Source: a virus. Taken from it: a DNA stretch of 30,223 bases. This document shows, in pieces, positions 162 through 28,629 of this stretch. The position numbers and the translations under genes were made by a program. The notes below the pieces were generated by a model. It saw only the letters and a program-made list of their open reading frames with translations, did no database searches and was not told the DNA's origin. The stretch covers positions 1-30,223 of the IMG/VR virus record IMGVR_UViG_3300031949_000004; one strand, given 5' to 3'. The first letter of the stretch is position 1, and every line of letters starts with the position of its first letter.

Positions 162-2780
162 ATGCCAAACGGACACTACGAAGACGCCCCCGCTACGAAG
201 TTGGTTGCGACTCATTGCTGTTGTTGTGGTCGGGCGCTGCTCGACGCTCAATCGGTGGAGATCGGGATCGGTCCGGTCTGCCGTGAGAAGTTTGGTTTCG
301 TTGGCGCGATGGTCTCGCCGGAAGCGCGCGAAGAGGCGAACAAGTTGGTGTACCAGATCGCCTGCGCGCCCACGATGAGTGCCGCCTTGATCTTGCGCCT
401 GCGCGAGCTGGGTTTCGTGAAGCTCGCGGATCGCATCGCCGAGTGCGCGAAGACGGCCTGCGAGGCTGAGCTGGTGAACGGCGAGATCAGGCTTTTCACC
501 ACGAAGGACGCGAAGACGATCTTGACGATCAAGACCACGGCAGACTGGGTGAAGGGACAGAGGCGTTGGGATCCAATCAACCGTTGCTGGGCGCTCGACG
601 AACGAGCTGCCCGCGCCGTGGTACCCGCGCTGGAGCAGATCGGGATCTACATCAAGCGATCTGCCGAGGTCGAGGCTCTGCTTGACAGGCCCGAGGTTTC
701 GCAAGCTGGGCAGTTCGAGCAGGGGGGTGGTTTTGGTGAAGGTGGTGGCCGGGGCGCGATGGGCGTGGTGGTGCCGCTGTCGAAGCCGCAAGTCAACTAC
801 CGCTGGGTGGTGAACGGTGACAAGGTCTCGATCACGACGCCGTACAATGCGTCGGCCGTGGAGTCGCTCAAGGCGGCGTCGACGGGTTGCTATCGTAGGT
901 TCGACGGCGTCACCAAGTCGTGGATCGTGGATCTCTCGGCGGCGGCCAAGGTGGCAGAGGTCCTGCGTCCGTTCTTCCCTGGTTTGTCGGACGAGATGCT
1001 GGCGGACGAACGTATCAAGTCGGCAGCTCCCGCGCGGTTGGATCGCTGGTCGGTGATCGGGGATCGCGTGTCGATCTCAACGCCCTATAATCCGGAGGTG
1101 GTGACGGTCATCAAGAGCGCGGCGTTGGGTGCCTGTCGTTTCGATGGTGATAGCAAGGCGTGGCTCGTGGAGCTGAACGTGGCCGCTAACGTTGCGAAGG
1201 CCCTGTTTCGGTTCTTCCCCGCGTTGTCGAACGAGATGTTGGCGGATGTTCGTATCGCTGGTGAGGCCGAGGCTCGCGAGGAGCGGGTGCAGCTTTCGAC
1301 GGCCGCCGAGATCCAGGATGGCGGGCCGGGCGCCGAGATCGCTGCGCGGCTTAAGGCGCTGCTGCCCGAGGGTTGCGTACCGTATCCCTATCAGATTGTC
1401 GGGGCAACGTTCTTTGAGGCCGCCAAGGGTCGGGCGCTCAACGCCGATGTCATGGGTCTGGGCAAGACGATCCAGGCGCTTCTCTGGCTGGCCCTGCATC
1501 CGGAGCTTGAGCGCGTGCTCATCGTGGTGCCGGCGTCGCTTACCATCAACTGGTTGCGTGAGATCTGCAAGTGGTTGCCTCAGTTCACAGCGTCGATCAC
1601 CAGGAATGGTAAGGACAAGATCCAGGCGACCAAGATCGTGGTCACGTCCTATGAGTGCGCCACGCGCCGGAAGGCTGAGTGGATCTCCTGGGCTCCAGAG
1701 GCCGTGATCCTTGACGAGTGCCACTACCTCAAGAATACGAAGTCGCAGCGTACCAAGGCGATTGTGGGTGTCGAAGCTAGCAAGGACAAGAAGACGGGTG
1801 AGATGACGCCGGCCGTGGACGGGATTGCAACGCATGCTGCGCACGTCATCGCTCTGTCCGGGACGCCGATGCTCAATCGCCCGATCGAGCTTTACACGAC
1901 CTTGCACATGATCACACCGACGACGTTCGCGAGTTTTTTCGGTTTCGCGAAGCGGTACGCGGGGGCCGAACAGACGAAGTTTGGTTGGGACTTCAAGGGT
2001 GCCTCGAATGTCGAGGAGCTGCGAGCCAGGCTCTCCAACATCATGATCCGCCGCGAGAAGTCGCAGGTGCTCGCCGAGCTGCCCCCGAAGCGCCGAGCCC
2101 AGATCGCCGTGCAGCTCAGCAACGAGGCCGATTACGCGGCGTACGAGGAGGATGCAAAAGATCGGTTCACGAACAAGGAGCGCACGGGCGAGCGGTACAA
2201 GGGCGACGTGCTCGTGGCGCTCGGCAAGATGCGCATGCTCGCGGGGCTCGGCAAGGTCGAGGCGGCGGTCGAGTGGCTCTCGAACGCGGACATGCCCGTG
2301 GTGGTGTTCTGCCATCATCAAGAGGTCGTGGATGCCATTGCCGAGGCACTGACCAAGGCGGAGATCACCTGGGTGGCGGTCACGGGCAAGGTGGGCGTGG
2401 AAGCTCGTCAGGCTGCCGTGGATGCGTTTCAGGCAGATCAGGCGCGCGTGTTTTTGGGCACCTACGGTGCGGCAGGCGTCGGGTTGACCCTGACGGCGGC
2501 GAGCGATACCCTGCATGTGGAGCGGGCGTGGACGCCAGCGGCGGAGGAGCAGGCGGAAGATCGCTGCCACCGTATTAGTCAGAAGGAATCGGTCACCTCC
2601 TGGTACATGGTGTCGGACGTATCGATCGATGCGAAGTTCCAGGCGCTCGTTGAGGCTAAGCGGGCGACGATTAGCTCCGTGATGGACGCGGCCGGGTTGC
2701 TGGGTATCGAGGGTGGTGACAACGAGTCGTTGACCGGTGATCTGGCTTGCGAGATCTTCGGGAAGGGTGTGTGGGGCTGA
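162..2780 (+). CDS. SNF2-family ATPase/helicase with an N-terminal zinc ribbon and two tandem HARP-like repeats (SMARCAL1-like annealing-helicase architecture)
   Basis: 872 aa. N-terminus has CCCCGRALLDAQSVEIGIGPVCREKF (CxxC...GPxC ribbon). Two roughly 75-aa repeats: VSITTPYNASAVESLKAASTGCYRRFDGVTKSWIVDLSAAAKVAEVLRPFFPGLSDEMLADERI and VSISTPYNPEVVTVIKSAALGACRFDGDSKAWLVELNVAANVAKALFRFFPALSNEMLADVRI. SNF2 motifs: LNADVMGLGKTIQAL (motif I), ILDECHYLKN (DExH), plus C-terminal helicase motifs (LGTYGAAGVGLTLTAASD, ERAWTPAAEEQAEDRCHRISQ). RBS ggagaa precedes the ATG. Confidence 0.85.
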   Translation: MPNGHYEDAPATKLVATHCCCCGRALLDAQSVEIGIGPVCREKFGFVGAMVSPEAREEANKLVYQIACAPTMSAALILRLRELGFVKLADRIAECAKTACEAELVNGEIRLFTTKDAKTILTIKTTADWVKGQRRWDPINRCWALDERAARAVVPALEQIGIYIKRSAEVEALLDRPEVSQAGQFEQGGGFGEGGGRGAMGVVVPLSKPQVNYRWVVNGDKVSITTPYNASAVESLKAASTGCYRRFDGVTKSWIVDLSAAAKVAEVLRPFFPGLSDEMLADERIKSAAPARLDRWSVIGDRVSISTPYNPEVVTVIKSAALGACRFDGDSKAWLVELNVAANVAKALFRFFPALSNEMLADVRIAGEAEAREERVQLSTAAEIQDGGPGAEIAARLKALLPEGCVPYPYQIVGATFFEAAKGRALNADVMGLGKTIQALLWLALHPELERVLIVVPASLTINWLREICKWLPQFTASITRNGKDKIQATKIVVTSYECATRRKAEWISWAPEAVILDECHYLKNTKSQRTKAIVGVEASKDKKTGEMTPAVDGIATHAAHVIALSGTPMLNRPIELYTTLHMITPTTFASFFGFAKRYAGAEQTKFGWDFKGASNVEELRARLSNIMIRREKSQVLAELPPKRRAQIAVQLSNEADYAAYEEDAKDRFTNKERTGERYKGDVLVALGKMRMLAGLGKVEAAVEWLSNADMPVVVFCHHQEVVDAIAEALTKAEITWVAVTGKVGVEARQAAVDAFQADQARVFLGTYGAAGVGLTLTAASDTLHVERAWTPAAEEQAEDRCHRISQKESVTSWYMVSDVSIDAKFQALVEAKRATISSVMDAAGLLGIEGGDNESLTGDLACEIFGKGVWG
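786..1257 (+). repeat. Intragenic tandem duplication (period about 244 nt) encoding the two HARP-like modules
   Basis: The repeats at about 800 and 1044 nt are similar at the DNA level (cgctgggtggtgaacggtgacaaggtctcgatcacgacgccgtacaat vs cgctggtcggtgatcggggatcgcgtgtcgatctcaacgccctataat) and at the protein level. Confidence 0.8.
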
Positions 2781-2899
2781 TGGGTGTTCGGCGTGTGTTC
2801 GGGTCCAAGGAGAACGTTCTCTTGTATCGCTATGGCGTTGTCGGATCTGAGGATGTTGGTGGTCGGAGGAGGAGTCGTCGGGGTGCAAAGGAGGCCGTT

Positions 2900-3307
2900 A
2901 TGCGTGAAGCACGGTTCGATGTCGTTGGTCCGCTCGATCGCTGCGGTCGGTGGATCAAGGGCAAGGTCATCATCAACCGCGAGCAGGGGCTCGTGACCGT
3001 ACGTCCGCATCGCAAGCGCAAGATCTACACCTTGCCGCTTCTGACGGTGGCCGCCTGGGTGTGCCGGCCGGTGAACGTGCTTTGCGAGGATGGTACATTG
3101 CGAGGATCGCGGTTCTTCGTGGAGGGGAAGCTACTTCGTGGTGAGGCGGCGCTGGGTGGAACGGTGATCGTGAGCCGTACCCAGGGTCTCTTCATGGTGC
3201 GGCCGTTTCGCAAGCGCCGGGTGTATGCTCGGAGCATGACAGATACGGCGACCTGGATCTGTCGGGCCGTGACCATTGCCGAGTTGAAGGCGCGCAGGTC
3301 GCGCTAG
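2900..3307 (+). CDS. Hypothetical protein with an internal duplication
   Basis: ATG at 2900 is preceded by caaaggaggccgtt (strong RBS). The longer ORF from 2747 is less likely. Repeats: GLVTVRPHRKRKIYTLP and GLFMVRPFRKRRVYARS. Confidence 0.5.
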   Translation: MREARFDVVGPLDRCGRWIKGKVIINREQGLVTVRPHRKRKIYTLPLLTVAAWVCRPVNVLCEDGTLRGSRFFVEGKLLRGEAALGGTVIVSRTQGLFMVRPFRKRRVYARSMTDTATWICRAVTIAELKARRSR

Positions 3308-3316
3308 GGGTGTGAC

Positions 3317-3814
3317 ATGTGGAATGCCGCTGACGAGAAGGTTGCTCTGAAAGCGAACGCCAGGGCCGAGAAGATCGCGAGGCAGATCGTCCGGATGGCC
3401 GCCAAACAGGGCGCCAAGGATGTGTACCTGTCGGCCAGGGCACATGTGGGTTCGGGCTACTACAGCAAGCCCACCGGAGCGGTGGTCTTGACGTTCACGA
3501 CCATCGGGCGGCAGAGGACGGTGAACGATCTCAAGAAGCCGTTCGACCTGCCCGAGATCGTCCGGTTGCTGGTCGAGAAGCGCAAGCATGACGATGCTTG
3601 CGAGGCGGCTCGCGAGCGCAAGGAAAAGCTGTCCGAGGTCTTCGAGCGAGAAGTCTCGAAGTTGCGCAAGCGGTTTCCGAGGCTGCCGCTTGAGATCTGG
3701 GTGTCCTTTGATGCGGAGGGAATCATCTTGCACGTGTCGCGCTTGACGGCCCGGCAAGCTGGAGAGGTGCTCAAGGTGTTGGTAGATCGTTTCCCTGTTG
3801 AGGTCGAGAAATGA
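3317..3814 (+). CDS. Hypothetical protein
   Basis: 165-aa ORF with RBS aggggg. Its stop overlaps the next start (ATGA at 3811-3814). Confidence 0.45.
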   Translation: MWNAADEKVALKANARAEKIARQIVRMAAKQGAKDVYLSARAHVGSGYYSKPTGAVVLTFTTIGRQRTVNDLKKPFDLPEIVRLLVEKRKHDDACEAARERKEKLSEVFEREVSKLRKRFPRLPLEIWVSFDAEGIILHVSRLTARQAGEVLKVLVDRFPVEVEK

Positions 3815-4452
3815 CCACGGACGAGGCTTTGGCGATTTTCAAGCTCAAGGCGCCGACCACCTGGAACGTCGTCAAGACCAGGTATCGGCAGCTTGCAACG
3901 GTTGAGCATCCGGACCGGAGCAAGCACCCGGAGGCCGTGGCCCGTTTCAAACGGCTCGCGGAGGCCATGGAGCTGCTGCGGCGGGATCCAGCGGTCTTCG
4001 AGGACTATGGGGGTGTCGTCAAGACCGAGGATGGTGTTCTGCTGGCCGATCTCGGGAAGGGGCTTGGGCCGACCACGAACGGGGCTACCTGTGGTGAATG
4101 TTCTGGCAAGGGTTATCGTTCGGTTGAAGGTCGCGGGTTCGTGGATTGTTCGGATTGCCGGCGAGGTATCTTTGGTGTTGTTAAGGAGCTGAAGTGTTGG
4201 AAGTGTGATGGCACCGGGGTCTTCATGCGCGGGGGCAAGGTTGTGGGGAAGTGTTTTTCTTGTGACGGTTCGGGCTGGCGTGTGCCCAAGGACTATACAA
4301 CGTGGTGTCGGAAGTGTGGAACCAGGGGGCAGTTGCGGGTGCCCGCGAGGAAGATGTTCTTCACCTGTGAAAAGTGCAAGGGCACGGGCGAGCTGCCGAT
4401 GTGGAACCCGGTGCTCGCGAAGGGTCTTTTGTCCGGGTTGGGAGGTTTGTGA
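3811..4452 (+). CDS. J-domain protein with an extended CxxCxGxG zinc-finger region (DnaJ-like co-chaperone lacking the G/F and C-terminal domains)
   Basis: N-terminal J domain has the HPD tripeptide (ATVEHPDRSKHPEAVARFKRLAEAMELL). Six CxxC motifs follow: CGECSGKG, CSDCRRGIFG, CWKCDGTG, CFSCDGSG, CRKCGTRG, CEKCKGTG. Confidence 0.8.
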   Translation: MTTDEALAIFKLKAPTTWNVVKTRYRQLATVEHPDRSKHPEAVARFKRLAEAMELLRRDPAVFEDYGGVVKTEDGVLLADLGKGLGPTTNGATCGECSGKGYRSVEGRGFVDCSDCRRGIFGVVKELKCWKCDGTGVFMRGGKVVGKCFSCDGSGWRVPKDYTTWCRKCGTRGQLRVPARKMFFTCEKCKGTGELPMWNPVLAKGLLSGLGGL

Positions 4453-4481
4453 TAGACTTGGCCCAGATGAGGTGGTGACGC

Positions 4482-5375
4482 ATGGCACGCACGAAGAAGA
4501 CGAGCAAGAAGGGTCGCAAGACCGTGGTGCGAAGATCGCGGGTTGCCCGGAAGCCGAAAGTCCTGGAGCCCGTGGACTTCGAGGATGCGAAGGCCGTGCT
4601 CGCGGAGTTCTGCCGGGTCGAGAAGGAAGATCCAGAGGACTGGAAGATCGAGGAAGCCGAGGGGCTCGGCAGCTTCGGGGTTGCGACCGTGTACCGGGTC
4701 AAGTGCGGCCAGCGTGAGTACACGATCGTGGAGAGCGAGGATGTCCTGCGCGAGCTGGCGCTGGCCGTGGTCAAGCAGGACTTGGACCAGGAGCCGGAGA
4801 TCTTCAACCAGAGCTTCTTGGAGGGACACATCGACAAGGAGAAGCTGCGGAACGCTCTCCATGGCGATGTCTACGACATGGTCTATGACGATTTGAAGGA
4901 GGCGGCGGAGAAGGATCCCTTGGAGTTTTGGGATGTTCACGGAGGTGACGTGCCGGTGCCGGAGCGTGCGGTGGTTGAGAAGTACGTAGCCAGTACCTTC
5001 AATACCACCGAGGCCGAGGAAAGCACGCCCGAGGGGCAGGCGGAGCTGGCGGACGAGGTTGATCGAATCTGCGATCTTGATGTGTCAGATCAGTGGGCAG
5101 AGATCAGCGATGAGCCAGAGGTGCCATCGGGGATGATTGATACGGCTGCAGATCTGGAGACCAGTGAGCGTTTGAGCGATCCTGTGGAGTACATGAAGGG
5201 AATCTACGGGGACGCGGAAGGTATCAAGCAGGCGTTGAACGTCGCTGGTATCGACATCGACAAGGCTGCCGAGGAAGCCGTCGACACGGATGGTCCCGAG
5301 CACTTCATCTGTCGCTACGATGGGAATTCGCATACCACGTCGCCGTCGTCCTTTGCCTACTGGCGCGAGAACTGA
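4482..5375 (+). CDS. Hypothetical protein with a basic N-terminus and a highly acidic body
   Basis: 297 aa. RBS gaggtgg lies 6 nt upstream. Starts MARTKKTSKKGRKTVVRRSRVARKPK, then is Glu/Asp-rich. Confidence 0.5.
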   Translation: MARTKKTSKKGRKTVVRRSRVARKPKVLEPVDFEDAKAVLAEFCRVEKEDPEDWKIEEAEGLGSFGVATVYRVKCGQREYTIVESEDVLRELALAVVKQDLDQEPEIFNQSFLEGHIDKEKLRNALHGDVYDMVYDDLKEAAEKDPLEFWDVHGGDVPVPERAVVEKYVASTFNTTEAEESTPEGQAELADEVDRICDLDVSDQWAEISDEPEVPSGMIDTAADLETSERLSDPVEYMKGIYGDAEGIKQALNVAGIDIDKAAEEAVDTDGPEHFICRYDGNSHTTSPSSFAYWREN

Positions 5376-5379
5376 AAGG

Positions 5380-6288
5380 GTGGGCAACATTCCCAGGAAG
5401 AAGCTTTCGGTTGGGTTTGCTGACTTCTGGCAGGGGCACATTCCGGAGAAGAATTATTTCTACAGCCTGCTCCGGAATCACTTCGACCTGGAGATCTCAC
5501 CCAGGCCGGACTACTTGTTCTATTCGGTGTTCGGTCGCACACATCTGTCGAAGGCGTTTGACGGTTGTGTGAAGATCTTCTACACCGGAGAGAACTCGCG
5601 ACCCAACATGAGCGAGTGCGACTTTGCCCTGTCGTTCGATTACCTGGATCATCCTCGGCACTTGCGGTTCCCGCTTTATGCGTGTCATCTATGGAACAGA
5701 GATCTGACGAAGTCGTTGCCCTTGTTGCCCGAGCTGGCGAAGCGAAAGTTCTGCAACTTCATCTACAGCAATGGGACACCGCAGGAGCGCATAGCGTTCT
5801 TCAAGCTGCTATCGACATACAAGCGTGTTGATTCTGGTGGCAGCGTTATGAATAACATGGGTTGTTGTGTAGGTGACAAGCTTGCGTTCCTGAAGGACTA
5901 CAAATTCACGATCGCTTTCGAGAATTCGTCACATCCTGGTTACACGACTGAGAAGTTGGTGCAACCTATGATCTCCTGTAGTCTTCCGATCTACTGGGGT
6001 AACCCCCTGGTTGGGCGCGACTTCAATCGGCAGAGTTTCCTGGCTGTTGATTCAACTTCCGACTTTGATGATGTTCTCGTTGCGATCATGGCTTTGAATC
6101 GTGACGATTCCGCGTATCTGGAGATGCTTTCCAGGCCGTGGTTTGTAGGGGACGTGTGCAACGAATACTGCCGGCCTGATTACCTTGTGCCGTTCTTCGA
6201 GCGAGTCTTCGCGACCGCGCCGGGGAGCTTGAAACGCGAGCCGGGGATCTTGAAACGAGCGTCGAAGTCTTGGCAGGATTTTCGGTAG
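5380..6288 (+). CDS. Glycosyltransferase family 10-like (alpha-1,3-fucosyltransferase-like)
   Basis: FTIAFENSSHPGYTTEKLVQPMISCSLPIYWGNP matches the GT10 FucT hallmark FENS...Y.TEK plus IPIYWG. I place the start at GTG 5380 (RBS gaaaggg), just after the upstream stop. The frame is open from 5290, so the start is uncertain. Confidence 0.6.
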   Translation: MGNIPRKKLSVGFADFWQGHIPEKNYFYSLLRNHFDLEISPRPDYLFYSVFGRTHLSKAFDGCVKIFYTGENSRPNMSECDFALSFDYLDHPRHLRFPLYACHLWNRDLTKSLPLLPELAKRKFCNFIYSNGTPQERIAFFKLLSTYKRVDSGGSVMNNMGCCVGDKLAFLKDYKFTIAFENSSHPGYTTEKLVQPMISCSLPIYWGNPLVGRDFNRQSFLAVDSTSDFDDVLVAIMALNRDDSAYLEMLSRPWFVGDVCNEYCRPDYLVPFFERVFATAPGSLKREPGILKRASKSWQDFR

Positions 6289-6295
6289 TCGAAGA

Positions 6296-6721
6296 TCAGG
6301 GGACTGCGCGGAGGTGGCCGCGTTTGGGTGGTTGCGCGGGTGTCGGCTCACCATCAGGTTCGTCGTAGAGAGCCGTGAGACCAAGCACGGCCGTCCAGGG
6401 AATGAACGTTTTGTGGGGCGTCCGGTTGAACGAGAGCGTGGCCGAGATGCCGGAGGTGTCGATCTTCAGGTCGGAAATCGGTACGACAGGATGAAGTGGG
6501 TAGTGGAGCATGATGACGGTCATGGTTGTTTTGGTGGTGGATCCATCGGCCTGACTCAGTGTTACGATTTTTGGTGGGTGTTCGTCGATGACAGATTGGG
6601 GGAGCAGGACTTCTGGTGCCCTGCCGTTGACGGTGAGCTTGACGCCGCCTTTGGACCATAGATTGTTGAATCGCGAGACCAGCTCCGCGAGGAAGCTTTT
6701 GGGGGTGTGGTCTTCGGTCAC
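6296..6721 (-). CDS. Hypothetical protein
   Basis: 141 aa. GTG start with GGAGG 5 nt upstream. GTGA overlap with the upstream gene's stop. Convergent with the fucosyltransferase gene; the two gene ends are only 8 bp apart. Confidence 0.45.
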   Translation of the reverse strand: MTEDHTPKSFLAELVSRFNNLWSKGGVKLTVNGRAPEVLLPQSVIDEHPPKIVTLSQADGSTTKTTMTVIMLHYPLHPVVPISDLKIDTSGISATLSFNRTPHKTFIPWTAVLGLTALYDEPDGEPTPAQPPKRGHLRAVP

Positions 6722-15552: not shown

Positions 15553-17352
15553 ATGATCAGTCGTCGTCCCCCCGGCAGATCGCCATCTGACCGGTATCCT
15601 TCGATGGGGCGATCGGGGGCCGGGCGGTTTTCGCCCGGTCGTTCGACGCCCGACGATCAAACCGAGCAAGCCGGTGTCGAGCGTCGTTTGTCCAAGACAC
15701 CGATCTACGAGGCTGGTGATCCGTTTTCCGGTACCGTGTCGCGCGGTTCTCCACCTAAGATGTTGCGCGATCAGCTCTACGATCGCATGTGTGATTGGCG
15801 AGGTCATACGATCGCGGAGATGGAACTTTGGTTGCCGGGCAACAAATGGGTCGAGGCGATGATTGATCTCATTACGTTCGGGTTTGCTTTCGATCGTGAG
15901 GTTTTACCCGACGGGACGAAGACCCTCTGCTTGCGCAAGCGCGAGCTTTACGAGCACAGGCAGCAGGTGGTGGATATTCTTTCGGGTGTCACGCTGCCAG
16001 ATCGTATCGCGATGTCTTCGGATCCCATGTTGTCGATACCCGAGGTCAAGGCGCCTCGTCAGGGTGTCGTGTTTCAGGAAAGCTCCATCCTCGTGGATGA
16101 AGGGCAATGGACGCCGCCTCCCGATACGGAGAAGATGGTGCTCGATGTGAACGGTGATATTGTGCTGTCGGTTCTAGATCTGGTCACCGACACCATTGGT
16201 ATCCTGGCTCGCAAGGGCGCGGGCAAGACCTATCTGGCCATGGTGATCGCGGAGGAGTTCCTGGCGAGCACGTTCGATATTCCCTTTGTGGTCCTGGATC
16301 CGACGGGTGTGTGGTGGGGGCTCCTGTCTGATGCGGAGGGTAAGCCTACGACGACCCGACTGGCGGTCTTTGGTGGTGCTCATGGTCATTATCTGCTCAG
16401 CTCCAAGGATGGGGCGATCATGGCCAAGACGGTCGTTGCCTGTCGCCCTTTGCCGTTTGTCTTCGACCTATCGGCGTTTCCCCGCGAGGAGCAGCATCGG
16501 TTTTGCGCCGATTTCTCCGCCGAGCTGTACCTGGCGAACAAGGAGCCGTTGCACATCTTCATCGACGAGGCGGACGGATTCGCGCCGCAACGGCTCGATG
16601 GGAAGTCCTCGATGCACCAGAAGCGGTCGCTGGTCGAGATTGATTGCCTCGTGCGGCGAGGTCGGGTCCATGGGCTCGGGGTCACCCTGATCACGCAGCG
16701 TCCTGCTGTGATATCGAAGAACGTGATCTCCCAGGTGGGGGCCATGTTCTTCCTGGAGACGGGGGCGCCACACGATCTGCGAGCCATTGATGATTGGTTG
16801 ATTGATCGGATCGGGGACGACGTGCGCCGGCAGTGTCGTGAGGAGTTGCCGGTGCTCGGTAAGGGTCAAACCTTTTACATGCGTGGTGGGGAGCACTATC
16901 GGTTTTGTAAGTTCACGGTGCGTCTGAAGAAGACTGTAGATTCGTCCTATACACCACGTATCGGTGAGAAACGTCCAAAAGCCGAAACCTACCAACTGAC
17001 CGAAGAAGATCGGGCGATGCTTGACGAGGCCATGGAAGCCGTTCGCTCTGGAGTGTTTGTTTCCGGCGAAGGTGGGGTGGCGACCGCTGCCCTGAAAGTG
17101 GTGCATGAGCTTGCCACTGCGAGGTTAACCTCCACAAGTGATGGCGTTGCGGATGATGTTGGAGACAGCGTTTCGCCTGATGACAGTGTTGAAGACAGTG
17201 GTTCATCCGATGTCGTTCAAGATCTAGATGAGGGTGATACGACTGCGGGCAGCGATAATCCCGATCCTGATACGGATGATGACGATCACGTTCAGGATGT
17301 TCGTGGTGTGCCGGTAGACGATCAGCAGGACGACTGTTCCGAGGATGATTGA
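15553..17352 (+). CDS. HerA/FtsK-superfamily P-loop ATPase with a disordered N-terminus and an acidic C-terminal tail
   Basis: Walker A ILARKGAGKTYLAMV. LDPTGVWWG (HerA-like DPxGEY-type motif). Walker B HIFIDEADGF. VTLITQRPAVISKNVISQ (the TQRP motif of FtsK/HerA). C-terminal D/E-rich tail. Confidence 0.75.
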   Translation: MISRRPPGRSPSDRYPSMGRSGAGRFSPGRSTPDDQTEQAGVERRLSKTPIYEAGDPFSGTVSRGSPPKMLRDQLYDRMCDWRGHTIAEMELWLPGNKWVEAMIDLITFGFAFDREVLPDGTKTLCLRKRELYEHRQQVVDILSGVTLPDRIAMSSDPMLSIPEVKAPRQGVVFQESSILVDEGQWTPPPDTEKMVLDVNGDIVLSVLDLVTDTIGILARKGAGKTYLAMVIAEEFLASTFDIPFVVLDPTGVWWGLLSDAEGKPTTTRLAVFGGAHGHYLLSSKDGAIMAKTVVACRPLPFVFDLSAFPREEQHRFCADFSAELYLANKEPLHIFIDEADGFAPQRLDGKSSMHQKRSLVEIDCLVRRGRVHGLGVTLITQRPAVISKNVISQVGAMFFLETGAPHDLRAIDDWLIDRIGDDVRRQCREELPVLGKGQTFYMRGGEHYRFCKFTVRLKKTVDSSYTPRIGEKRPKAETYQLTEEDRAMLDEAMEAVRSGVFVSGEGGVATAALKVVHELATARLTSTSDGVADDVGDSVSPDDSVEDSGSSDVVQDLDEGDTTAGSDNPDPDTDDDDHVQDVRGVPVDDQQDDCSEDD

Positions 17353-19705: not shown

Positions 19706-21817
19706 ATGGCTGAATTTGGTCCTATCACTACCGAACGCCAGTTGAGGAACATCGGTGTGCTCGACCTGGAATGGGTGCCCGGTGAGGTGTTACCCATGCC
19801 CGAGAGCACTATGCTCGAAATTGACGGGATCCGGGCACCGCTCGTCATTAACCTGCCGCCCGTTAAGACGCGAACGGCTCCTTTGCAGCTTCGTTTGGCT
19901 GGTTACTATGATCAGCAGCCGGAGTGCGAGGACGAGGAAGAGCCGGTGATGGTGGAGCGGTATGAGGTCTTCAAGAGTATTGCGGAGCTGGTCGAGTTCA
20001 TGTTCGTGCGCGAGCACCGGGGCATGTGGTTCTTTGCTCATGCGGGCGGGCTCTTCGACATGGAGTTCGTGCTCGACGAGCTACTTAACCAGATCAAGGA
20101 GTCCTTGGCGGCCAAGCGTCAGCGTTCACGGACCGTTTATGGTCCTGATGGGCAAAAGCAGGAGGAGACGATCACGGCTACGGGATCGGAGTCCGATGCC
20201 CCCATGTGGACGATCAAGGCGGCGTTCTCGGGGTCATCGGCGATCATCATCCATGTCAGCAAAGGCAAGAACACCTGGCATTGTGTCGATTCGTATTGGT
20301 TGTTTCGGGACAAGCTCTCGAAGATCGGTGAAAGCATAGGTATCAAGAAGCTCGACGAGGAGAAACGTCGCACGCCCGAGGAGACTCGGAAATACTACGC
20401 CGAGACTCCGCTTTCCACGTTAATTCCTTACAACAAGGTGGATTGCGAGATTTTGTGGAAGGCCATCGCAGCCTTCGAGAAGGAGGTGTTGGGTTTAGGC
20501 GGCCAGCTCCAGCAGACCATCGCCTCGACGGCCATGAACTTGTTCCGGCGTGCCTATCTCAAGCGGACGATCCACACCTCGGAGATCTTGAATCAGATCG
20601 CCGTGAAGAGTTATTTCGCCTCGCGGGTCGAGGTCTTTCAGCGCCATGCCGAGGACTTCTTCATCTACGACATCAACTCGTCGTTTCCGTATTCGATGAC
20701 TTTCCCGTTGCCCGCTGATCTGATCGAGATGGGTACGACCATCCCCGAGGATGATGACGATTCGTGCATCTACTTGGCGGACGCCACGGTCGAGGTGCCC
20801 GAGATGGCGATTCCGCCTTTGCCGTTCCGGACCCAGGAGGATAGTCGCGTGTTCTTCCCGACCGGGCGGTGGCGGTCGTGGTTCACGTCGACCGATTTGC
20901 GGTTGGCGTTCCGTGAGGGTTGCACGATCCATAAGATCCACGAGTGCTACCGGTTCGAGCCGTTCGAGGATTTCGGCAACTATGCTCGCGAGATCTACGC
21001 CATGCGGGTGGCGGCAGACAACCCTTTTCGCAAGCTGCTTTTGAAGTACCTTCTCAATTCCTTGTATGGTAAGGCTGCGGAGTCACTGATGAAGCAGGAG
21101 ATGCTCATCAATCCTGCCGAAGAAGATCTTGACAGAACCCAGCTCCAGATGCTTCAGCCGGGGATCTGGCTGCGCGAGAAGGAAGTTGCAATTGCACACC
21201 GACACGTTGTCGTTTCGTCTGTTATCACAGCATTGTCTCGTCGACATTTGTATGACCATGCTAAAGCTTGCGAAGAACAGAAGAAACCAATATTGTATTG
21301 TGACACGGATAGTGTAGCAACAAAGGCTACGTTGTCGTGTTCAAAGGAGCTTGGCGCCCTGAAGCGTGAGAAGGAAATGGATTGGGCCGAGTTTGTTGCT
21401 CCAAAGATTTATCGTGGTGAGGGTGTCGAGCTAAAGGATGATGGTGGTCGTAAGGCTGTGAAGCTGGCTAAGGCTAAGGGGTTCTCGCTCGGCAAGTTTG
21501 ATAGTCCCATTGACGCCCTGGGTCGTATCATCGATGGGGAGCAGGTGGGCGTCCAGTCCATGGTGCGCATGCGTGAGCTTTATCGGTCGACCACGGAAGA
21601 GCACGCGGAGAGTGCTCCCTATGAGAAGCTCGTGATCAAGGCGCTCACGCAGCGGATGCTCTCGAAGCGATTTTTCTATCCTGATGGTCATACGCGGGCC
21701 TGGACGACCGAGGAGATCTTGTCAGGTGATTTCCAAAGTCAAGGATTCGATTTCGGCGACGACTTCATGAAACAGCTTGACACTACAACGCGAGCCATGC
21801 TGGAGGCGGCGGTATGA
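19706..21817 (+). CDS. Family B DNA polymerase with an N-terminal 3'-5' proofreading exonuclease (compact, probably protein-primed type)
   Basis: Exo I: VLDLEW (about nt 19761). Exo II: FAHAGGLFDMEF. Exo III: YNKVDCEIL. Motif A: DINSSFPYSM (about nt 20669). Motif B: KYLLNSLYGK (about nt 21046). Motif C: YCDTDSV (about nt 21295). KxY: PKIYRG. At 703 aa it is too short for typical RNA-primed PolBs. Confidence 0.85.
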   Translation: MAEFGPITTERQLRNIGVLDLEWVPGEVLPMPESTMLEIDGIRAPLVINLPPVKTRTAPLQLRLAGYYDQQPECEDEEEPVMVERYEVFKSIAELVEFMFVREHRGMWFFAHAGGLFDMEFVLDELLNQIKESLAAKRQRSRTVYGPDGQKQEETITATGSESDAPMWTIKAAFSGSSAIIIHVSKGKNTWHCVDSYWLFRDKLSKIGESIGIKKLDEEKRRTPEETRKYYAETPLSTLIPYNKVDCEILWKAIAAFEKEVLGLGGQLQQTIASTAMNLFRRAYLKRTIHTSEILNQIAVKSYFASRVEVFQRHAEDFFIYDINSSFPYSMTFPLPADLIEMGTTIPEDDDDSCIYLADATVEVPEMAIPPLPFRTQEDSRVFFPTGRWRSWFTSTDLRLAFREGCTIHKIHECYRFEPFEDFGNYAREIYAMRVAADNPFRKLLLKYLLNSLYGKAAESLMKQEMLINPAEEDLDRTQLQMLQPGIWLREKEVAIAHRHVVVSSVITALSRRHLYDHAKACEEQKKPILYCDTDSVATKATLSCSKELGALKREKEMDWAEFVAPKIYRGEGVELKDDGGRKAVKLAKAKGFSLGKFDSPIDALGRIIDGEQVGVQSMVRMRELYRSTTEEHAESAPYEKLVIKALTQRMLSKRFFYPDGHTRAWTTEEILSGDFQSQGFDFGDDFMKQLDTTTRAMLEAAV

Positions 21818-24742: not shown

Positions 24743-25161
24743 TCGGGATCTTCTGCTACACGATCCCGTATCCTCGCTACTTGGACAAGGTCACCCGGCG
24801 TGCGGTCGAGGTCGAGAAGTCTTCCGAGGAGCCAGGCAACATCTTGCCTGCCGAGGAGCCGGGGATTTGGTCCGAGGTTATCATGCCCAGGGGCAGCAAG
24901 CTCTTGCGCGTGGATACCGGCCACACCAAGCTAGCGTTCTGGGCGGCGGTTCCGATCGGTGAGACTAGGCTTTGCACGCGCAAATTTCTGCTCTTGATGG
25001 GCGGGGAAGCCATCGACGACGAGAAGTTTCCGACGTTGCTTTATCGGGGGACTGTGCAGATCTACCACGGGGGATTTCTGTGGCATGTCTTCGAGCCCAT
25101 TGATCAGGTGTTGGCCGAGGACAACGCGATTGCCATGATTCGCGTGGAGAAGACGACATGA
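24739..25161 (+). CDS. Hypothetical protein
   Basis: 140 aa. ATGA overlap with both the upstream and downstream genes. Confidence 0.45.
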   Translation: MIGIFCYTIPYPRYLDKVTRRAVEVEKSSEEPGNILPAEEPGIWSEVIMPRGSKLLRVDTGHTKLAFWAAVPIGETRLCTRKFLLLMGGEAIDDEKFPTLLYRGTVQIYHGGFLWHVFEPIDQVLAEDNAIAMIRVEKTT

Positions 25162-25877
25162 TGGACGAGCTTCATATTCGACAGCGTGTTGACAACGGCC
25201 GAGAAACCTGGGACACGCCGACCATGCGGTGGATGCAGACCTACACGGGCAAGGTCATCGATATCGCGAACCCGAAGCCGGAAGACATCGATATCGTGGA
25301 CATCGCGCACGCGCTCGTGCGGTTGTGCCGCTACGGTGGGCATGTGGAGACCTGGTATTCGGTCGCCGGACATTCGTTGGCCATGGCCAAGTTCGCCGAG
25401 ACGCTTTCCGACCAGACCATGTTGGAGTGTCTTTTTCATGATGCCACCGAGGCGTATTTGGGCGACACGATTTCCCCCGTGCGCAAGCTACTTACCGACT
25501 GGACCAGGCGAGTGGTTTCAGAGACAGGGGATCCTGCTGGCAATGGTGTCCTGAGCATGCTGGAGCTTTTGCACGAGCGGTGGCAGAGCGCGATCTGGCA
25601 AAGGTTCGGGTTGTGCGTGATCGGGTCGACGGTGCGCACGCTCGACAAGCTGGCGCTCTTGGCCGAAGTGTCGCTGGTATTCAGGACCGTGTCGCCAGCT
25701 TTCGAGCGCAACGGTTACACGTGCGATCCGAACGAGCCGGCGCTGCACAAGATGCAGGATTTCGTTCGCCCCTATGTGCAGGAGTGCGAACCAGGTGGTT
25801 TTGGGCACAACGAGCTTGAGCTGGAGTTCGTGAATGCCTTCACTCGCTGGGAAGCCTTGCGGAGAAAGGGGCGTTGA
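25158..25877 (+). CDS. HD-domain phosphohydrolase, YfbR-like 5'-deoxynucleotidase
   Basis: SVAGHSLAMAKFAE...CLFHDATEAYLGDTISPVRK matches the H...HD...D pattern of YfbR-type HD hydrolases. Confidence 0.65.
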   Translation: MMDELHIRQRVDNGRETWDTPTMRWMQTYTGKVIDIANPKPEDIDIVDIAHALVRLCRYGGHVETWYSVAGHSLAMAKFAETLSDQTMLECLFHDATEAYLGDTISPVRKLLTDWTRRVVSETGDPAGNGVLSMLELLHERWQSAIWQRFGLCVIGSTVRTLDKLALLAEVSLVFRTVSPAFERNGYTCDPNEPALHKMQDFVRPYVQECEPGGFGHNELELEFVNAFTRWEALRRKGR

Positions 25878-26740: not shown

Positions 26741-27226
26741 ATGGGTGCCATCGTTCAATTACCGTTTCGGTATCTCGAAATTGCTACGGCTGAAATAGGT
26801 CAAACCGAGATTGAAGGCAACGTTGACAATCCTCGTATTCTCGAATACTTCAAGACAACGTCGTACCAGGCAGCACACGATGAGGTGTCGTGGTGTGCGG
26901 CTTTCGTGAACTGGTGCTTGGTTCAAGCGGGCATCAAAGGAACCAATAGTGCCAGTGCGCTTTCTTTCGCTAACTGGGGTGTTGAGGTTAGGCCGTGTCT
27001 TGGTAGCGTTGCTGTCATAGATTACGGCAACGGTAAGGGGCATGTGGGTTTTCTTGTTGGGTGGCAGGGGCCGAGCTTTGTGTTGTTGGGTGGGAATCAG
27101 GGCAATTCAGTTCGCTACAAGTTGGTTTATCCCCAAAGCATTACGCACTGTCGCATGCCGGTGGAGATCTTACCGGAGCTTGCTGCTATCACAGCCACGT
27201 CTCTGGACTATGCATCATCCAGGTGA
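26741..27226 (+). CDS. CHAP / NlpC-P60-like peptidoglycan hydrolase (phage lysin-like, TIGR02594-like)
   Basis: NPRILEYFKTT...SWCAAFVNWCL (catalytic Cys context) and a downstream GKGHVGFLVGW (His). RBS gaggt. Confidence 0.6.
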   Translation: MGAIVQLPFRYLEIATAEIGQTEIEGNVDNPRILEYFKTTSYQAAHDEVSWCAAFVNWCLVQAGIKGTNSASALSFANWGVEVRPCLGSVAVIDYGNGKGHVGFLVGWQGPSFVLLGGNQGNSVRYKLVYPQSITHCRMPVEILPELAAITATSLDYASSR

Positions 27227-28221: not shown

Positions 28222-28629
28222 ATGAACCGAAAACTGTACGTGAACAACATTCCGTGGAGTGTGACCAACAACGATTTGAAGACCTGGGTTCAGGGTCTAG
28301 GTTTCGTTGTCGACGAGGTTAAGATCATCATGAGCGCCGAGGACGGAAGGTCGCGTGGTTTCGGTTTCATTACCTTTCGGACGGAGGAGGAGGCAAGTCG
28401 CGCACTGTGGAAGCTTGACGGTGCGAGCTACCTGGGTCGGGTGTTGCACGCGGCCGTTGCGGTTCCAAAGAAACCGGGCGACAGGGCTCCAGAGTCGAGG
28501 CAACCCGAACCCGGAGAACCTGAGGTTCGTGGCGACCGTTCAGACTATGCCGGGGCCTGGTCTCCCGAGGAAGCAAAGGCTGCGAAGGGGCGACGGCATC
28601 AACGAGACGAACACGATATGGATGATTGA
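28222..28629 (+). CDS. RRM (RNA recognition motif) RNA-binding protein with a charged C-terminal tail
   Basis: RNP-2 KLYVNNIPW. RNP-1 RGFGFITF. RBS ggagaaacacac. The C-terminal 50 aa are R/E/D-rich. Confidence 0.8.
   Translation: MNRKLYVNNIPWSVTNNDLKTWVQGLGFVVDEVKIIMSAEDGRSRGFGFITFRTEEEASRALWKLDGASYLGRVLHAAVAVPKKPGDRAPESRQPEPGEPEVRGDRSDYAGAWSPEEAKAAKGRRHQRDEHDMDD

Follow-up and report, generated by a model that had tools for sequence, protein, structure and literature searches.

The 30,223 bp stretch of viral DNA described here, positions 1 to 30,223 of IMG/VR virus record IMGVR_UViG_3300031949_000004 and referred to below as the window, contains a rightwards-transcribed gene at positions 5380–6288 that is predicted to encode a fucosyltransferase. 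The product is in all likelihood an intact, soluble GT-B enzyme of CAZy GT10, the inverting alpha1,3/4-L-fucosyltransferase family, and its gene a genuine gene of the element that recurs in the lineage as movable cargo; we hold these two statements jointly with high confidence. The gene and the segments of its product are as follows, in window coordinates and amino acid (aa) positions.

5380..6288, plus strand: GT10 fucosyltransferase gene, 302 aa, GTG start and TAG stop, assigned from the open reading frame (ORF), homologue N-termini, Pfam, PDB and fold.
5410..5682 (aa 11–101), plus strand: FucT_N domain (PF18025), the acceptor-side Rossmann-like half.
5740..6123 (aa 121–248), plus strand: Glyco_transf_10 C-terminal GDP-fucose-binding domain (PF00852).
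6190..6285, plus strand: short basic C-terminal tail, PFFERVFATAPGSLKREPGILKRASKSWQDFR, with low pLDDT over the last ~20 residues.

The open frame on the plus strand spans 5290–6288 and offers three in-frame starts, ATG 5290, ATG 5320 and GTG 5380. When the 332-aa form is aligned with 12 homologues, all 12 start close to Val31, no more than a few residues away, and the extension has no counterpart in any of them. Because the homologue N-termini fall near the Val of GTG 5380, the gene is 5380–6288, which settles the choice between 5290 and 5380 that an earlier reading of the sequence (the first-pass annotation) had put forward for checking. The 30-residue extension from 5290 would moreover run into the upstream gene, whose end is at 5375, and both ATG 5290 and ATG 5320 are ruled out as starts. 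The same 302-aa form from GTG 5380 is found in the public gene call P0001, an identical protein on the ENA ERZ27256953 contig k141_3318564 (47,750 bp), of which the window represents positions 16–30238. Look-ups with the two last window proteins and with the window's DNA polymerase for the remainder of this contig yielded just a 12-kb Logan contig.

Both domains of the family are recognised well above their Pfam cut-offs: FucT_N matches with an E-value of 2.3e-27 (95.7 bits versus a cut-off of 27.2) over profile positions 1–89 of 91, and Glyco_transf_10 with an E-value of 7.7e-16 (58.7 bits versus 23.9). A search of PDB sequences gives the Helicobacter pylori alpha1,3-fucosyltransferase (HpFucT) as the best match (2NZW, E 3e-38; 5ZOI), with an alignment over aa 9–251, followed by Arabidopsis FUT11, human FUT9 and mango FUT13. 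An AlphaFold2 model built with 52 homologues has a pLDDT of 92.2 and a pTM of 0.88, and Foldseek against the PDB places HpFucT chains first (E 4e-23 to 2e-20, TMq 0.76–0.79); ranks 1–18 are all GT10 enzymes (HpFucT, mango FUT13, human FUT9 and Arabidopsis FUT11). NCBIfam and PHROGs return no match for the protein.

The active site is also maintained. HpFucT residues E95, R195, N240, Y246, E249 and K250 map to E71, R137, N182, Y188, E191 and K192, with six of six conserved, and E71, R137, E191 and K192 are invariant across the 52 homologues. Glu71, the putative catalytic base (GAG, 5590–5592), lies in the YTGEN of the FucT_N domain and aligns with HpFucT E95; the other five residues are in the Glyco_transf_10 domain, together with the motif FENSSHPGYTTEK (5917–5955) and LPIYWG (5983–6000). 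In HpFucT, E95 is proposed to act as the catalytic base, with E249 stabilising an oxocarbenium-like intermediate, and mutants in either residue are virtually inactive (PMC4202792). The gene had been recognised in the first-pass annotation by a FENS/GY/TEK motif followed by [IL]PIYWG; this is present as AFENSSHPGYTTEK at aa 179–192 (5914–5955) with LPIYWG at aa 202–207, except that FENS and GY are spaced by three residues rather than the five described, a trivial discrepancy. With both Pfam domains above their gathering scores and the HpFucT alignment extending over aa 9–251, a chance match to the motif is excluded on the alignment evidence. The alpha1,3-fucosyltransferase-like identity had been made to depend on a GT10 profile match and a full-length alignment. 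Two Pfam domains and a near-full-length alignment were found, and together with the matching fold and the conserved catalytic residues these confirm it.

The predicted protein has neither a transmembrane segment nor a signal-like N-terminus; its maximum 19-residue Kyte-Doolittle hydropathy is 1.17 and its pI is 8.5. It ends ~50 residues past the catalytic core in a tail that contains no heptad repeats and no transmembrane segment, and the gene has no tandem repeat; an amphipathic moment of up to 0.74 is found at the very C-terminal end. The GT10 protein is thus apparently complete, active and cytoplasmic, as judged from these features. HpFucT (2NZW, 2NZX, 2NZY, 5ZOI) has the same two-domain GT-B architecture of FucT_N plus Glyco_transf_10, at ~28% identity in structural alignments, but its longest solved chain is 420 aa compared with 302 aa here, and it carries DDLRINY-type heptad repeats and two long C-terminal amphipathic helices, whereas the window protein lacks both and has just the short basic tail. 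This heptad/anchor region defines the Helicobacter subfamily and not GT10 itself. The HpFucT gene is chromosomal, whereas the window gene is on a mobile element. A paper on a 'FucT' of Bacteroidetes O-glycosylation (PMC8698959) was considered as a parallel and set aside, as that family is GT2 and not GT10.

The gene is AT-richer than its flanks, as had been proposed, with a GC content of 0.525 relative to a mean of 0.587 (standard deviation 0.035) over the 30 window genes. Its GC3 of 0.683 is only ~0.5 standard deviations from the window-gene mean of 0.717 (standard deviation 0.066), and none of the 30 has a lower GC1 than its 0.495. Because GC3 is ordinary and the dip is confined to GC1 and GC2, the AT-richness reflects the F/Y/N/K/S-rich amino acid composition of the family, and recent import from an AT-rich donor is ruled out. 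The homologue in a related locus, L002, shows the same drop (gene 0.527, locus 0.605).

Comparisons with related elements show that the GT10 gene and the ORF upstream of it occupy a variable segment.

4461..6294, no strand assigned: accessory slot of variable content, bounded by the DnaJ-like gene and the convergent leftward operon and defined by blastn and tblastn against L100.
4482..5375, plus strand: 297-aa acidic ORF upstream of GT10, stopping 4 nt before the GT10 start and lying within the variable segment.

L100 (JGI Ga0208980_10000021, 67.5 kb) is a close relative, with 80% identity in SNF2, 76% in the DnaJ-like protein and 72% in ParB; a family B DNA polymerase (PolB), P0123, on a 67,544-bp JGI contig is 90% identical to the window PolB. 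L100 and the window are syntenic on both sides of the slot, and the 1.8-kb segment 4461–6294 is replaced in L100 by 1.3 kb (L100 7577–8846) with two small ORFs plus a 201-aa ORF resembling class-I methyltransferases, for which the Pfam matches are below the cut-offs. A different arrangement is seen in L127 (Logan SRR22315508), where the slot contains a homologue of the 297-aa ORF (88% identity; absent from L100), a 100-aa ORF sharing 63% identity with one of the ORFs in the L100 slot, and then the GT10 gene P0003 (67%), with convergent genes matching those of the window at 61% and 70%. The contig carrying P0002 (72%; JGI 3300075153) has a window-like gene layout, as judged from gene sizes and orientations only. 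GT10 therefore occupies the same operon-end slot in two relatives, and because the same flanks accompany GT10 in these independent assemblies, a chimeric assembly is excluded. The product of the 297-aa ORF has a basic N-terminus and a very acidic body, and has no Pfam, PHROG or PDB match.

In other members of the lineage GT10 is found at a second type of location, in islands of glycan-related genes. The 112.5-kb ENA ERZ25039557 contig_15197, to which loci L090 and L091 belong, matches the gene order of the window between ParB and the RRM gene (identities of 58% for ParB, 60% for SNF2 and 75% for PolB), and has two GT10 genes in L090 ~30 kb away from the syntenic region, one of which, P0009, is 52% identical to the window protein. 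The L090 island consists of two GT10, two GT2/Glyco_transf_7C and four Methyltransf_24 genes. A gene with an Nmad5 domain (nucleotide-modification-associated domain 5) is located at L090 12644–13189, 1.7 kb downstream of the island, and has no homologue in the window. The L088 island (P0005, 52%) has two GT10 genes, three of GT2/GT7C type, a GT1_4 gene, two methyltransferases and a radical SAM gene, and in L016, the single IMG/VR relative, GT10 is surrounded by GT4/GT1, GT2, GT2/GT7C, GT32-like, Methyltransf_24 and GT2 genes. GT10 directly follows a GT2/Glyco_transf_7C (beta4-GalT-like) gene in both L090 (5945–10948) and L088 (6750–8498 and 10413–12067), four pairs in all, with Methyltransf_24 genes nearby; in L016 (4494–6921) a GT32-like gene separates the GT2/GT7C gene from GT10. 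The beta4-GalT-like/GT10 pairs suggest, on gene order and family assignment, a Gal-GlcNAc unit to which fucose is then added, a Lewis-like building block.

L002 (P0004, 61%) differs again in that GT10 is the only glycosyltransferase recognised by Pfam and is placed at the island locus and not in the operon-end slot. The L002 flanking genes are shared with the L090 island region on the 112.5-kb contig (60–78% identity), and L002 was set aside as a relative of the window region, GT10 being the sole gene that the two have in common. We note that JGI 3300027887 contains both the close relative L100, which lacks GT10 (_10000021, 67.5 kb), and a contig with P0004 at the island locus (_10000038, 54.9 kb); since both have a GC content of ~0.61, a single ~120-kb genome may have given rise to the two. 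JGI sample 3300075153 likewise holds the slot-type P0002 and also P0004. Overall, the GT10s of related elements (P0002–P0005 and P0009) are of the same family and 46–72% identical to the window protein, which is solitary where those of L088, L090 and L016 are embedded in multi-glycosyltransferase/methyltransferase islands. In a neighbour-joining tree without support values P0001–P0004 form a clade, with a sister group that includes the L088 and L090 copies.

The GT10 gene lies among replication genes, and the following are recognised in the window.

162..6288, plus strand: rightward operon with a DUF6011-SNF2 helicase, three small ORFs including the DnaJ-like gene, the 297-aa ORF and GT10 (ORF map and Pfam).
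162–2780, plus strand: DUF6011-SNF2 helicase, with an N-terminal DUF6011 followed by SNF2-rel_dom and Helicase_C (Pfam).
3811–4452, plus strand: DnaJ-like gene (Pfam).
Leftward block: DUF2786, ParB_N and second SNF2 genes.
15553–17352: HerA/DUF87-type ATPase.
19706–21817: PF03175-type (protein-primed-type) PolB.

GT10 is the last gene of the rightward operon, as the first-pass annotation had it: the plus-strand genes from 162 to 6288 are tightly packed, with gaps between consecutive genes of 119, 9, −4 (an overlap), 29 and 4 nt, and the next gene (6296–6721; a weak SspB-like match) is convergent and lies 7 nt beyond GT10. No terminator-like hairpin is present at the junction of GT10 and this convergent gene, and a weak promoter-like site at 53–81 is not above chance (2 sites against 1.6 expected). 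The 'HARP-SNF2' label given to the first gene of the operon was not upheld, as Pfam at E<=0.01 identifies DUF6011, SNF2-rel_dom and Helicase_C and no HARP domain; ~370 residues between the DUF6011 and SNF2 domains have no Pfam assignment. The remaining window genes include those for an HD-domain protein (HD/YfbR-like, 5'-deoxynucleotidase-type; 25158–25877), a PolB-exonuclease-like protein, a weak CHAP-domain match (26741–27226) and an RRM_1 RNA-binding-domain protein (28222–28629).

The carrier itself appears from its gene content to be a large mobile element, either a virus or a plasmid, of an abundant uncultivated lineage with contigs that reach more than 100 kb. More than 1000 relatives of the window PolB are found at E<=1e-10, and the best 120 listed are 55–100% identical and come from contigs of up to 282 kb, some of them with inteins. 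Among PolBs from cultured sources, the nearest, from tectiviruses and Methanosarcina spherical virus, are of the protein-primed type and only 23–30% identical. A single contig of the lineage was found in IMG/VR, and a PolB scan of 185,579 species genomes (GTDB) returned one 6-kb contig of a Nitrospirota metagenome-assembled genome (MAG), at 56%. Taxon names on homologues are mixed, and include Bacteroidota, Pirellulales and a Conexivisphaerales MAG. The related carriers of P0002–P0005 and P0009 (L127, L002, L088, L090 and L016) share a backbone of PolB, SNF2 and ParB with the window. Neither the window nor L002, L090, L091 or L016 yielded a recognisable capsid, portal or terminase gene, and there was no PHROG structural match. 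The HerA-like ATPase has one PHROG match labelled 'terminase large subunit' (E 2e-13), but its tblastn matches comprise 59 plasmid records (Mycobacterium, Clavibacter, Sphingobium and others) and just one phage record.

GT10 enzymes were described in the first-pass annotation as rare in phages and plasmids, and the outcome depends on the collection. In cultured and annotated sets this is correct: there are 12 weak matches in 50,697 phage records, the best being Synechococcus phage S-SKS1 (33% identity over 65% of the query), and eight in 72,556 plasmids, at 35% in Azospirillum megaplasmids. It does not extend to metagenomic viral contigs or to the lineage of the carrier, as at least 348 IMG/VR stretches encode GT10 relatives, with a best identity of 48%. 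We surveyed the neighbours of GT10 in 37 of these IMG/VR loci (145 genes within two positions), and the commonest Pfam families are GDP-mannose 4,6-dehydratase (GMD)/epimerase (14), FkbM and other methyltransferases, GT1 and GT11, with six clear GMD orthologues from six of the 37 loci. Because sugar-nucleotide and glycan families dominate these neighbourhoods, viral GT10s would usually lie within such islands, some of which are predicted to supply the first step to GDP-fucose; the window does neither. The best viral GT10-fold matches, the cyanophage S-SKS1 'alpha-1,4 fucosyltransferase', Mimivirus R654b/GT10 and a Solivirus alpha1,3-fucosyltransferase, are distant (20–27% identity for the giant-virus proteins) and are from other hosts and genome types; no demonstrated target for any of the three was found in the literature searched. 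A mobile-element-borne fucosyltransferase with demonstrated activity is that encoded by futC in human gut prophages (PMC12748750), which uses GDP-fucose as predicted for the window enzyme, but which is a GT11 enzyme forming an alpha1,2 linkage.

A plausible scenario for the window enzyme is that it would act in the host cytoplasm and draw GDP-L-fucose from the host pool, since the 30-kb window encodes no gmd/fcl. Alpha-linked fucose would be added to a GlcNAc- or Glc-containing oligosaccharide already made, because there is no second glycosyltransferase in the window, and a Gal-GlcNAc-type acceptor is suggested by the placement of GT10 directly after beta4-GalT-like genes in relatives; this acceptor would come from the host or from element genes outside the window. 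The enzyme thus probably uses host GDP-fucose on a pre-made glycan, and the GMD genes beside other viral GT10s are consistent with GDP-fucose as the donor. Two possible roles had been put forward in the first-pass annotation, serotype conversion of the host and fucosylation of proteins that the element encodes. As to what carries the glycan, we tentatively favour, at somewhat less than even confidence, a host-made, membrane-proximal envelope precursor, such as a lipopolysaccharide, capsule or S-layer glycan unit. For as long as the element resides or replicates in the cell, fucosylation of this precursor would alter the surface and so hide receptors or shut out competitors. A mobile element altering a host surface glycan is also the outcome of the classical phage seroconversion modules of the gtrABC type, which act in O-antigen glucosylation and encode a GT2 bactoprenol glucosyltransferase, a flippase and a periplasmic GT-C enzyme next to an integrase and att site, but none of the gtr components is seen in the window, which has no integrase, flippase, GT2 bactoprenol transferase or GT-C.

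Several points weigh against modification of a host envelope glycan. Activity, donor and acceptor are each predicted, and the presence of GDP-fucose and of a suitable acceptor in the host is an assumption; a further 17.5 kb of the contig lies outside the window, as does probably upwards of 50 kb of the genome, and partner glycosyltransferases or gmd/fcl could be encoded there. The window has neither an integrase nor a lysogeny module to establish a setting of classical temperate-phage seroconversion, and the basic C-terminal tail is short and weakly amphipathic for membrane association. Moreover, the islands of four to seven enzymes with methyltransferases in relatives resemble autonomous glycan synthesis more than tailoring of a host O-antigen.

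This last point leads to a different recipient, the element's own particle, and it is possible, if doubtful, that GT10 helps to build a fucosylated and perhaps O-methylated glycan on capsid or tail equivalents that would shield particles or mediate adhesion, as in the virion glycosylation of mycobacteriophages or the autonomous glycosylation of giant viruses. The element-encoded glycosyltransferase/methyltransferase islands of L090, L088 and L016 fit such a role, as does the fact that the closest viral structural matches are giant-virus GT10s (Solivirus and Mimivirus), and phage glycosyltransferases are documented to glycosylate virions (Freeman et al. 2023, as cited in PMC12619734). However, such islands of glycosyltransferases and methyltransferases occur in the relatives and not in the window, where GT10 is solitary and in a replication-type operon; moreover, no capsid, portal or tail gene is recognised in the window or its relatives, and the HerA-like ATPase is closer to plasmid than to phage proteins. 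That same replication context (SNF2, ParB and PolB) is what would suggest that GT10 fucosylates a hydroxymethylated base in the DNA of the element as a means of escaping restriction, and the Nmad5 gene near the L090 island points in this direction too, as does the occurrence of ParB-like proteins with glycosyltransferases in phage DNA-hypermodification clusters (Pyle preprint; PMC13229309). We nonetheless regard this as highly improbable, since the window contains no hydroxymethyl-pyrimidine-forming enzyme (TET/JBP-type 5mYOX dioxygenase or ThyS-like hydroxymethylase) and no DNA base kinase, and the pairing of GT10 with beta4-GalT-like genes in relatives points to oligosaccharide acceptors. 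The DNA glycosyltransferases in the Pyle preprint, whose text names neither fucose nor GDP-sugars, are JGT-like GT-A or T4 beta-GT-like GT-B enzymes, and T4 beta-GT is not among the 50 listed PDB fold matches of the model.

GT10 could instead be a passenger, a recently captured bacterial gene without a role for the element or an inactive relic, given its position in a variable slot, a GC content below that of its flanks, and the ~50%-identical homologues that are common in bacterial MAGs, such as a solitary copy in a Pirellulales MAG. We consider this quite improbable, as the ORF is intact with every catalytic residue, its GC3 is adapted to the element, and at least two other relatives retain a GT10 in this slot, with identities of 67–72% for GT10 and 61–88% for the flanks; the grouping of P0001–P0004 next to the GT10s of related elements, in a tree without support values, also argues against it. 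Taken as an outcome for the glycan carrier, a passenger gene or some other explanation has a small probability. A broader proposal, which we think unlikely, is that GT10, beta4-GalT-like enzymes and O-methyltransferases form a lineage-wide, element-encoded programme that builds fucosylated Lewis-like glycans autonomously, either on particles or on the host surface.

Returning to the preferred reading of a host GDP-fucose-dependent enzyme acting on a pre-made glycan, the enzyme itself is ordinary, being of the well-understood GT10 type with thousands of uncharacterised bacterial homologues; if its acceptor is found, it might be a compact alpha1,3/4-fucosyltransferase candidate for glycan synthesis (302 aa, with no heptad/anchor region). 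What the locus illustrates is that a fucosyltransferase can be exchangeable cargo of a mobile element, carried at a defined slot, and the presence at this one slot of GT10 or a methyltransferase-like gene in different relatives suggests that glycan tailoring is under diversifying pressure in the lineage. The carrier lineage is more unusual than the enzyme. It is abundant in metagenomes, with its more than 1000 PolB relatives, and essentially missing from viral and genome reference sets. Few of its features can be interpreted, the GT10-centred glycan islands being among those that can. If the proposed lineage-wide glycan programme is true, it would represent a prokaryotic counterpart of giant-virus autonomous glycosylation, in a so far undescribed class of large elements.

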